Origin: Eledone cirrhosa | Lineage: Eukaryota | Reading direction: 5' to 3' | Length of the DNA stretch: 64,000 nt | NCBI GenBank assembly: GCA_964016885.1 | Contig: OZ024743.1 | Coordinates: 207,886,001 to 207,950,000 of the forward strand | Shown: positions 30,411 through 34,760 of the stretch, in pieces | Position numbering within the stretch: the first letter of the stretch is position 1 | Layout: each line of letters opens with the position of its first letter | Translations under genes and position numbers: made by a program | Notes under the pieces: model-generated | Databases searched by the model: none | Told to the model about the DNA's origin: nothing | Seen by the model: only the letters and a program-made list of their open reading frames with translations

Positions 30411-30571
30411 CTCACTAATATATATATAATTTCCTTTCCTTTTTCTTCGAAAATACTTAACATATATTTATATAGATGAAGTAATTCCGTCGGAAAGGTC
30501 CAGGAAAAAAAGAGTGCTCTATGTAGGTTACAGAGCTTATTAGTTATGTAATAAACAACATAAGATAATTA

Positions 30572-30632
30572 TTTCATTTACCAGTGGTTTCTTGAAAGCA
30601 AGCAAAATTTGCTTTCAGTCATCAGAATGAAA
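30572..30632 (-). ncRNA. Type I hammerhead ribozyme motif (inverted copy of 31239-31299)
   Basis: Exact reverse complement of 31239-31299. Confidence 0.85.
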
Positions 30633-31238
30633 AAATCCTGGTGTATTTGTTGACAGTGGATTTTAAAATCCACTGTCAATAAATAAACCAGGATTTTTTC
30701 ATTTTTTTTAAAAATCCACTGTCAATAAATACACCAGGATTTTTTCATTTTTTTAAAAAATCCACTGTCAATAAATACACCAGGATTTTTTCATTTTTTT
30801 AAAAATCCACTGTCAATAAATACACCAGGATTTTTTCATTTTTTTAAAAATCCACTGTCAATAAATACACCAGGATTTTTTCATTTTTTTTAAAATCCAC
30901 TGTCAATAAATACACCAGGATTTTTTCATTTTTTTTAAAATCCACTGTCAATAAATACACCAGGATTTTTTCATTTTTTTAAAAATCCACTGTCAATAAA
31001 TACACCAGGATATTTTCATTTTTTTTAAAATCCACTGTCAATAAATACACCAGGATTTTTTCATTTTTTTTAAAATCCACTGTCAATAAATACACCAGGA
31101 TTTTTTCATTTTTTTAAAAATCCACTGTCAATAAATACACCAGGATTTTTTCATTTTTTTAAAAATCCACTGTCAATAAATACACCAGGATTTTTTCATT
31201 TTTTTAAAAATCCACTGTCAATAAATACACCAGGATTT

Positions 31239-31299
31239 TTTCATTCTGATGACTGAAAGCAAATTTTGCTTGCTTTCAAGAAACCACTGGTAAATGAAA
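31239..31299 (+). ncRNA. Type I hammerhead ribozyme motif (intact core)
   Basis: Helix I tttcatt/aatgaaa; CTGATGA (31246-31252); helix II tgaaagcaa-attttgc-ttgctttca; GAAA; helix III ACCA-c-TGGT; triplet GTA ending at 31292. Confidence 0.85.
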
Positions 31300-31383
31300 T
31301 AATTATCTTATGTTGTTTATTACATAACTATATTTATACCCCCGTCCAAACCCATGCAAGCGTGGAACACGGACGTTAAACGT

Positions 31384-31417
<34 letters not shown>

Positions 31418-31523
31418 ATAGGAAAAGAGTCAGGACCCCAACGGCTGAGCTCCGGCCGTTTCGACAGATCCAGCTGTCGAAACGGCCGGAGCTCAGCCGT
31501 CGGGGTCCTGACTCTTTTCCTAT
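31418..31523. repeat. GC-rich 50-bp hairpin (6-nt loop) containing the 3' half of a hammerhead
   Basis: Arms 31418-31467 and 31474-31523, one mismatch. The right arm reads GAAACGGC-cggagctca-GCCGT-C. Confidence 0.9.
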
Positions 31524-33839
31524 TACCCACTCTACTACTCTTAGTATTGAATACTCTGGTGCGTTATGGTCCACCTGGTATCTTACCACACCCTCTTTGT
31601 TTATATATATATATATATAAAGAGAGAGAGAGAGAGAGGGGGGGGTGCGGGGGGGGGGGGGGGGGGGGGCATTATACATAGGAGTACTCAATGCAGAATT
31701 AGTATAGAGATATGTAAAATCCCGACCGCAAGCAGTTTTGGCAGGCGCCGTGTGTGTGTATATAAATTTGCATGAGTGCGAGAACTGGGAAGATGATGTA
31801 TTAGTCGATATATGATGAGATGCAGAGTGGGTAGAGTGAAAAGGTAAAATCCTAACGCTGTGCCCTGGTCGTTTCAACTTAACTTCCGTAAGTATTATAT
31901 ATATATATATATATAAATAATTATACTAAACTCGTCCTTTGCACTGAGTGCTGTTACCCTTGGATAAATCCCCCTAACTTTTACTACTACTATATATATA
32001 TATATATATAGACTCTTCACGTACATCGTATACATGTGTATGCATACAATGTATAAATGTTTTATGCGTGCAATGTATAAATGTTTTTAGATGCGTAATA
32101 TATGCATATCATACTATGTTTGTGTGCGTGTTTGTATGTGTGATTATGTATGTGTGCGTGTTTATGTGTTTCTATGTGTACGCGTTTATGTTTGTATGTG
32201 TGTTTATGCATGTGTGTGTGTTTCTTATCGTGTTTATGAATGTGTTCGTGTGCATGTGTGCATGTTTATGTATGTGTATTTGTGTTTATGTATGCGTTCA
32301 CGTGTGCATGTGTATGTGTGTGTGTGTGTGTGTGCACAAACAATGTAAGTTACAAAATAACTTTTTTCTACCAATTCAGAATCATCTGAAGAGATAAGAT
32401 GACCAGAGAGATATTAAAATGTCTAATTTCACAATTGATTAATAAATAGAAAGAGATTTCCTTTAATGAACTTCAAAAAGAAATGTGTTCTTAGTTTCTC
32501 TAATTAATTAAAACAGTAAAAAATATATTATTCAATAAAGTAATAAGCAAAAAACTGTTACGAAAATGTAATTAGTTTCAGTAAAACAGAAAATAGATAG
32601 CGGCAGACGTTTTAAGAATTTTAGTGGGTACAGTAGGAGGAATATGGTTCAACTTCAATTAAGAAGATACCAAAGTTTATAGATAGATTGTTAACCCTTT
32701 TGAAAGTAACCCGCCTCTGAGGTACTGTTATGTCCATTTTAAAGATGTCATCTCTTATATTAAAGCTGGTGAACTGGCTCAAGTACTGTTATCAAACTTT
32801 CCATTTTAAATCCGTCATATATTATGTTAAAGGTGAGGGTGAACTGGCAGTGTTGTTAGAACACAGGATAGAATGTTTTGTGGTATTCGCTCTGGTTCAC
32901 TGCTCTCTGAGTTCAAAGCCCGCCCAGGTCAACTTTGCTTTTCATTCTTTCGGGGTCAATACCAGTAATGCACTGAGGTCGATTTAATCGACTGTCTCCT
33001 CCCCACAAAAATTACTGGCCTTGTGCTTAACGTAGTAATCATATCATATTAAAAAGCGGCGAATTAACAGAGTCGTTAGAAGATCGGATAGAATGCTTTG
33101 CAGTGTTCTTTCCAACTCTGTTCTGAGTTCAAATCCCGCGGAGGAAAACTTTCTTTTCATCCTTTCGAGATCGATAAAAACATGCAAGTCTAGTGCCGGG
33201 GTCGACTGTTCTTCTATATCTTCATCACTTCCATTCTCTCATTCTATCCTTCTCTGGAAGAAATCTGTTGTGTTCAGACCTGGAGAGGAGATGGGCTCTG
33301 CTAGGTTTCAAAATGCTCAAGAAATGCTGTATATCAATACAGCACTCCTACGACTCCCTTAGGAATTAGGGGACCATGCCATGTCATCTTAAATTTAAAA
33401 TCTTTCGTTATAATTAATTTTATGTTCTTTCTAAACATCAATAAATGTTATTTTAAGAAAACCCTCCAGATTCTTGTTTATTTTCAACAGTGGTAATGTT
33501 GCCAGTGTGTTGGTTTGTCCCCAAAATATTCCTTTGACCCTTATGATGTGATGCGACCCAGACTGTCGCACTTGGTGGTAAGTTGAGGGTAGTTTTCGTT
33601 TTTGCCTCCCTCTATTTTTCTTTCTCTATATGTAAAGTTATTTATAAAAAAAAAATAAAACATCCAATATTACATTTCATCTCATGAGAAATGTGGCAAC
33701 AAAAGGGTTCTTTTAAAGTTTCGAAATCATGTGAATCGATTGGTGTGTGTGTCTGTCCGTTAAGTATTTCCGAAGAAAAGGTAAAGGAAAAAAAGAGTGC
33801 TCTATGTATTATGTTGAATATACATATCTGTACATACGA

Positions 33840-34020: not shown

Positions 34021-34760
34021 AATAAATAAATAAATAAATAAATACATACATATATATATAAATACATACATATATATATAAATACATACATATATATATA
34101 AATACATACATATATATATAAATACATACATATATATATAAATACATACATATAAATATAAATACATACATATATATATAAATATAAATACATACATATA
34201 TATATAAATATAAATACATACATATATATATAAATATAAATACATACATATATATATAAATATAAATACATACATATATATAAATATAAATACATACATA
34301 TAAATATAAATACATACATATACATATAAATATAAATACATACATATACATATAAATATAAATACATATACATATAAATATAAATACATACATATATATA
34401 TATATAAATACATACATATATATAAATATAAATACATACANNNNNNNNNNNNNNNNNNNNNNNNNNNNNNNNNNNNNNNNNNNNNNNNNNNNNNNNNNNN
34501 NNNNNNNNNNNNNNNNNNNNNNNNNNNNNNNNNNNNNNNNNNNNNNNNNNNNNNNNNNNNNNNNNNNNNNNNNNNNNNNNNNNNNNNNNNNNNNNNNNNN
34601 NNNNNNNNNNNNNNNNNNNNNNNNNNNNNNNNNNNNNNNNACACACACACACACATATATATATATATACATACACACACATGTATACACACATATATAT
34701 ATATATATATATATACATACACACACATGTATACACACAACACACATATATATGTATGAA
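33840..34760. repeat. Compound TA/TACA/TAAA microsatellite containing an assembly gap (N, 34441-34640)
   Basis: Direct reading; 200 N bases. Confidence 0.97.

Follow-up and report, generated by a model that had tools for sequence, protein, structure and literature searches.

The window, i.e., the 64,000-nucleotide stretch of Eledone cirrhosa DNA that we analyzed, contains what is likely a 5'-truncated, head-to-head pLTR insertion of a Penelope-like element (PLE), with a tandem array of short units at its apex. Extra units of this kind recur in the genome, and the boundary that they have in common between loci is the apex, on the 5' side, their 3' end being variable and usually placed in T-rich microhomology with the apex. 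On balance, the array was probably made by slippage at the DNA level, in a burst, from a single junction that arose as the two arms were joined. The palindromic insertion itself is a known PLE product and is common in this genome (680 exact cores, 77 + 115 close palindromes).

The insertion has two CTGATGA cores, at 31246 (+) and 30625 (-), each within a hammerhead motif. As noticed in the original prediction, the two motifs are identical and lie on opposite strands, and the arms are complementary without mismatch over 85 bp outward of the cores (30541-30625 and 31246-31330). On the inner side of the cores, 38 of 39 positions match between the left arm and the last unit. The spacer-less palindrome that had been described at the apex is indeed present: it is centered between 30664 and 30665 (GGATTTT/AAAATCC) and has 37 pairs, with 2 mismatches to unit 1. 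The extent first proposed, 30541..31330, holds at its right end, whereas on the left the arm runs on into the family tail and starts around 30476. In other words, the insertion spans about 30476-31330. It is flanked by a candidate 9-bp target-site duplication, and no ORF is left in this copy. Its features are, from left to right:

30464..30472, + strand: left copy of the candidate target-site duplication, 9 bp, followed by a 3-nt filler and then the tail; AT-rich, may be chance
30476..30540, - strand: PLE "tail", about 65 nt, on one arm only; stops at the second fixed 3' end of the family
30541..30664, - strand: left (tailed) pLTR arm, 5'-truncated at the apex
30572..30632, - strand: left type I hammerhead motif, mirror of the right copy
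30661..30668, no strand: apex TTTTAAAA, 8-bp self-complementary overlap of both arms; a hot spot of the family and likely the RNA 5' end
30665..31245, + strand: 13 tandem units of 44-46 bp, pLTR positions about -44 to -1
31206..31330, + strand: right (short, tail-less) pLTR arm; stops at the first fixed 3' end of the family
31239..31299, + strand: right type I hammerhead motif, predicted cut after 31292; made of the helix I 5' strand (31239-31245), the core CTGATGA, a 9-bp helix II, GAAA, and a short near-palindromic helix III
31330..31338, + strand: right copy of the candidate target-site duplication

The core boxes and the three helices of a predicted hammerhead are present in the pLTR, and the arm folds as type I, with helices I and II and a 3-bp helix III (z -1.93). 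The predicted pairing of helix III between two copies amounts to -10.2 kcal/mol. Rfam gave no hammerhead at the gathering threshold, nor among the 71 matches at E<=10, and its miRNA-type matches reflect hairpins only. The motif resembles the minimal, type I hammerheads of metazoan PLEs, as presented in PMC4209133, by its long helix II, the base between core and helix II, and a helix III that is short and palindromic and would require a dimer. According to the same paper, pLTR hammerheads occur in pairs, with the two motifs on opposite strands and 100-700 bp from each other. Unlike those hammerheads, the predicted motif here is accompanied by 45-bp units that stop short of CTGATGA, such that there is no catalytic core per unit. 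The unit region can also form an extended helix I by pairing with the stretch that lies 3' of the hammerhead (window 31216-31328; weak, z -1.84), which would put the short 3' end at the base of the helix.

To place the insertion in a family, we searched for its arm, which gave 1354 first-look candidates, and for an 18-base core, which had 680 exact matches versus 1 for the control. In longer copies, a microsatellite-rich UTR and then an RT-like ORF are found upstream, on the same strand (L048, L053, L070, L074, and L114), and both the arrangement pLTR-tail-ORF-3'UTR-pLTR and inverted copies occur among L048, L053, L070, L074, and L110-L120. A sister subfamily, whose arm is 86% alike, has intact frames of 713-715 codons directly behind pLTR and tail. 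By eye, we take these frames to carry RT-like motifs (D..FYPS, MGS, YRDD, FLD) and VVY..YVG. Pfam matched them to RVT_1 weakly, at E 0.019-0.038 only, and gave no GIY-YIG match in the sister ORFs. The PDB sequence and profile searches with the ORF product were without match, its AlphaFold model was unusable (pLDDT 39), and the pairwise EN comparison was not significant. The nearest Atlas clusters (scores 0.96-0.99) have GIY-YIG and RVT_1 in part of their members. Together with the layout of pLTR, tail, and hammerhead, these neighbors make it likely that the family is an endonuclease-containing (EN+) PLE. The initial attribution of the hammerheads to PLE pLTRs agrees with the family copies, the RT-like ORF, and the same Atlas neighbors. 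The near-identical intact ORFs suggest that the sister subfamily was active recently. In L109-L120, the core of this subfamily reads CTGAGGA, and another hammerhead-like copy, which is degenerate, lies about 470 nt past the stop codon.

The family shares many traits with the EN+ PLEs described in passages of PMC8557442 and PMC3846280 and in PMC11167929: head-to-head inverted pLTRs, a junction palindrome, a tail on one arm, AT-rich or microsatellite targets, a pLTR hammerhead, and an RT ORF behind pLTR and tail. For PLEs, the first two of these sources describe inverted copies with 5' truncation, palindromes at the junction, tails, and insertion into microsatellites. The family differs from these accounts by its tail, about 65 nt here versus 30-40, by the multi-copy arrays at the apex, and by a fixed apex with an extra G. 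How head-to-head inverted pLTRs form is "undefined" according to PMC8557442 and an open question in PMC3846280, and the present family provides a large natural sample for how they arise.

Using exact patterns, we retrieved 77 close palindromes with spacers of 61-121 nt, 8 with spacers of 122-182 nt, and 115 of the sister core with spacers of 95-155 nt. The sequences of the first 50 of the 77 places, the first 50 of the 115 places, and all 8 of the 122-182-nt class were taken for comparison. There are two fixed 3' ends in the family, the short end and the tail end, which lie beside TA-rich targets, one of each per palindrome. Exactly one arm was tailed in 46 of the 49 palindromes from the first set (one place of another family was dropped) and in 46 of 50 from the sister set (one of the 50 being another family). 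Both fixed 3' ends also appear as loose ends in raw reads. In L007 (1475-1525), a 24-bp direct duplication sits at the 3' end of the short arm, adjoining the TA target, i.e., a restart at the priming end. The enzyme of the Anolis PLE nicks and extends both strands in vitro, and reverse transcription of this element starts from two internal sites that bracket the tail (PMC11167929). Given these start sites and the single tailed arm per palindrome, we infer that two cDNAs, one per start site, were primed on opposite strands and joined head to head. In PMC3846280, junction palindromes are explained by self-priming on an antisense template, whereas the family here fits twin priming on sense RNA.

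The 5' ends of the arms are concentrated in a narrow range: 74 of 164 lie 43-46 nt before the core (82 palindromes), a peak biased by the selection on spacer length, which favors the range but not so narrow a peak. An untemplated extra G precedes the native G in 16 of the 31 unambiguous arms of the first batch (27 of 42 before 9 ambiguous and 2 duplicate arms were removed by eye) and in 3 of 11 arms of the second (4 ambiguous removed). Extra G's in L1 and SVA are attributed to cap copying in PMC3287187. That arm ends pile up some 45 nt ahead of the core, in many cases with an additional G, suggests that the apex is the capped 5' end of the RNA. One short and one tailed arm, a fixed apex, and a possible cap G thus predict twin priming on sense RNA and run-off where transcription starts. 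A second cluster of arm ends lies at -62, with a G in all 7 arms of the first batch and in 4 of 7 of the second; a local ATCTAT stutter accounts for it equally well.

Apex fold-back (opposite-strand) joints with 8 shared letters were found in the raw reads of three other samples (5, 2, and 2 reads; library chimeras are possible), and there were no "go back" joints among those listed for the raw reads. In L203, L200, and L174, the apex fillers are copied from further downstream in the element (in L203, from the 5' UTR up to the start codon) and are long-range template switches at the join. In L053:8300-8420 (-) and L110:2280-2400, GGTAAAT at the hammerhead cut site and TTTATACAG just past the tail have what we take to be a resemblance to a splice donor and acceptor. 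The candidate 5' UTR intron of about 100 nt between them would presumably hold both RT start sites.

The array of the window was characterized with TRF (period 45, 13.0 copies, 97% matches, score 1072), which bears out the earlier count of about 13 near-identical units of some 45 bp. It is also correct that only the last unit runs into CTGATGA. The unit bodies are identical except for 2 private changes, and the junctions read T7-8/A4-6. Each unit had been said to end at the 5' strand of helix I plus a variable oligo-T. The first part stands, with 12 of 12 junctions ending at CATT, but the second does not: the 3' end of the unit is ambiguous within the T run, and CATT plus the element's own TTTTTAAAA already gives T7A4, hence the "oligo-T" is mostly the start of the next unit. 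The T/A split varies between junctions, mostly T7A5 and T8A4, and the neighboring T6 run has a constant length in 22 of 22 intact cases.

The same locus is carried by contig C345, about 98% identical over some 7.5 kb up to the scaffold gap of the window. This contig covers the window between about 26.6 and 34.4 kb and runs 24 kb past the 200-N gap (34441-34640); it is an unplaced haplotig or gap-filling contig, and may be an allele or a noisier consensus. Its array has 10 units, a count that may reflect either of these. It has the unit-1 and left-arm variants in common with the window and 3 private variants. The flanks differ by 8 substitutions and 7 indel events in the 2580 bases compared, 2 of 7 segments being unaligned. 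The junction patterns of C345 and of the window contig (C4) are not collinear, with 5 of 9 mismatching and 1421 of 2000 shuffles fitting equally well, which indicates that turnover or consensus noise is present. We do not take the T/A code of the junctions for a clean record of what happened at insertion. No record bridging an array junction was found in the X1-X3 contigs (one sample) or the X7 raw reads, where RAD-seq is sparse and contigs tell of presence only; with the same reservations, the depth in bin 30694-30704 is 0, 3.7, 0, and 0 in these four sets.

The units had been predicted to be bounded by a ribozyme helix, with the boundaries at other loci set beforehand as the refutation test. 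This prediction largely fails, because unit ends elsewhere span from upstream of -19 to +58 (the C of CTGATGA being +1; the unit-end patterns detected ends from -6 onward only). The exact junction of the window has 16 matches, every one in C4 or C345, i.e., at this locus alone. The ends of extra units at other loci are:

L142: 3 copies of 19-20 bp, ends about -5 in the T run; units start about -21
L122: 38-bp unit, ends about -4; bounded by a 10-nt repeat
L123: 27-bp unit, ends -1/+1, CATT(C)
L140: 24-bp unit, ends -1/+1, CATT(C)
L121: 50-bp unit, ends +7 to +9, past the core
L082: ends about +32, in helix II
C26 array (see below): 6 copies, ends +56 to +58
L172, L197, and L084: ends upstream of -19
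L221: 3-copy case at a similar site

Three events end at the 5' strand of helix I (window array, L123, and L140), two of which have microhomology to the restart site, ATT in the window and CATTC in L140. Microhomology to the apex was found in L121 (GATT), L122 (10 nt), the C26 array (AATT), and the window (ATT). A search of the genome for other apex arrays had been suggested: extra units do recur at PLE apices, which ties the process to PLE insertion, and apart from these three events their boundaries are mostly off helix I. A script flagged direct repeats of at least 8 nt in 12 of the 49 spacers of the first set and 14 of the 50 of the sister set. On inspection by eye, true apex duplications, 10-38 nt long, account for 4 and 12 of these, respectively, the others being trivial or due to chance. 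We searched with one exact pattern for units restarting at the predicted cleavage site and found none, and the ribozyme cut site was rejected as the unit end. An exact pattern for restarts 0-60 nt past the core gave no match and did not recover L082 either, which shows that exact patterns undercount. The unit was likewise rejected as an R region ending at a poly(A) site (AATAAA 25-30 nt upstream), because T, not A, follows CA at the junctions.

The pLTR family of the window has a second array at an apex, made of 6 x 99 bp, at G000:C26:21520387-21520817 (L223:1428-2050). Its layout is that of the window, with a tailed arm, apex, array, and short arm. Each of its units, unlike the 45-bp units of the window, holds a complete type I hammerhead, and ends about 12 nt past the predicted cut site. 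All 5 junctions end at AATAAT(T), and the 3 unit-body variants are all singletons. The tandem copies could form a dimeric helix III, and the array, which judging by its sequence plainly derives from a PLE pLTR, is a candidate for a nascent retrozyme. It resembles the non-LTR retrozymes of bioRxiv 10.64898/2026.07.22.740005 in having a whole type I hammerhead per unit, and fits the proposal made there that retrozymes derive from PLE pLTRs. It is unlike them in that its units are not cut-site-to-cut-site monomers, and the units of the window have no ribozyme. We found no spread of the window or C26 array to other loci. An apex that seeds tandem arrays, one of them with whole hammerheads, would provide a concrete route from PLE pLTRs to retrozymes.

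The origin of the array that we favor would involve the following steps. The enzyme would nick both strands and prime two cDNAs at two internal start sites near the RNA 5' end, both cDNAs would run off at the capped 5' end inside the pLTR, and their ends would join via the self-complementary TTTTAAAA, with snap-back fill-in. In the window, one end would have copied itself over 45 nt before joining, giving a first duplication ending at CATT. The resulting 41-45-bp perfect repeat within a hairpin would then have undergone several rounds of slippage in a short burst, at the time of integration or soon afterwards, and the copy number would have changed somewhat later. The 3' end is constant within an array (12 of 12 junctions in the window, 5 of 5 in C26) and varies between loci, which fits a single junction being copied rather than fresh re-priming at each round. 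The array junctions also lack the G or GG that marks run-off ends. All unit-body variants are singletons (2 in the window, 3 more in C345, 3 in C26), pointing to a burst rather than slow turnover; without C345, the rough probability of this under steady turnover is 0.009. The 13-mer lies far beyond the simple geometric tail of apex duplications, hence slippage would need positive feedback from the first long perfect repeat in a stable hairpin. Several points weigh against slippage. The varying T/A split, set against the constant T6, could record separate priming at each junction, and every unit end lies at a T-rich site that could pair with the A run of the cDNA, as RNA or DNA. The junction T7-8 is nearer the native T5A4 start of the RNA than the T4A4 of the apex. 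The extra G is weaker in the second batch, and C4 and C345 are not collinear, with 7 indel events in the C345 flanks.

Part of this would be expected if the PLE RT had recycled one short RNA or RNA circle, delimited by the RNA 5' end and a fixed internal 3' end, by end-to-end jumps, thereby adding 5-12 copies in one reaction. This would be telomerase-like, with the RNA 5' end rather than helix I as the template boundary. The arrays are star-like with singleton variants only, the T/A split varies between invariant bodies, the units of both long arrays start at the inferred RNA 5' end, and two long arrays and 3-copy cases (L142, L221) lie at similar sites; circular RNA templates have also been proposed for PLE tandems (PMC4209133). 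We nevertheless consider recycling less likely than slippage, as it does not sit well with junctions devoid of a run-off G or GG, with C26 junctions that match the apex-specific filler (AATT then TTAAAA) and not the native start, with L142 units that begin about -21, off the hot spot, or with unit ends that fit neither the predicted cleavage site nor poly(A) addition. The wider scheme, in which the RT runs off the capped RNA 5' end and re-uses a short template many times in one reaction, yielding at the apex of twin-primed insertions minisatellites (45 bp in the window) and, where the re-used stretch includes the hammerhead, nascent retrozyme arrays (99 bp in C26), is just as tentative. It is less probable still that a minisatellite grew slowly over generations, by slippage and unequal exchange, linked to the insertion by its first copy only. 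Such growth would account for the 13 versus 10 units and the non-collinear junction codes of the two contigs, although C345 may be the noisier consensus, and transposon-derived minisatellites are common (PMC9659126). It would also suit a 13-mer so far outside the geometric tail. It is at odds with the finding that no body variant is common to more than one unit within any of the three arrays.

The first version of the hypothesis, repeat addition with the 3' boundary set by helix I of the hammerhead, now seems very improbable. CATT(C) is indeed where the window array stops, as do the single duplications L123 and L140, but the other ends lie at about -5, -4, +7 to +9, +32, +57, and upstream of -19, the exact window junction is confined to this locus, and a block by the helix would be expected at its outer end (about -7), not its inner end. 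We give equally little credence to the array, or its length, being an assembly artefact of a palindromic locus. In favor of an artefact, two contigs from the one assembly disagree in copy number, and there is a scaffold gap in the window at a distance of 3 kb. Against it, the array is present in two separately assembled contigs, whose variants are partly shared and partly private, other loci have a different array as well as intermediates of 2-3 copies, and apex fold-backs are present in raw reads.

Telomerase, an RT of a related class, also produces near-identical short units in tandem beside a fixed 5' template limit. The array differs from its products in having no dedicated template with an alignment region and in its intrachromosomal site. 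Repeat addition by the RT itself, should it occur, would be a missing link to telomerase processivity, but the evidence leans to DNA-level slippage. Similar short inverted or direct copies, bounded by microhomology and able to seed tandems, are known from foldback or templated insertions at breaks, which are host repair products (PMC11724301), and in transposon-derived minisatellites short templated copies at a joined end can seed tandem arrays (PMC9659126). Unlike in these systems, the joined ends here would be two retrotransposon cDNAs. In the literature covered by our searches, we found no account of arrays at the apex of a PLE palindrome, nor of a fixed, possibly cap-marked apex.

Two further repeats follow the insertion in the window. 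At 31339-31417, abutting its right end, there is a short repeat end with a (GAT)n tract, also found in L025 and L047, which is probably the truncated 3' end of another retroelement. At 31418-31600, a palindrome of another family has 50-bp arms with 1 mismatch and a 6-nt loop, its right arm being about 75 nt longer. This is the same short-arm/long-arm layout as that of the insertion, and relatives with different loop lengths are found in L005, L008, and L025; it is possibly a second PLE family.
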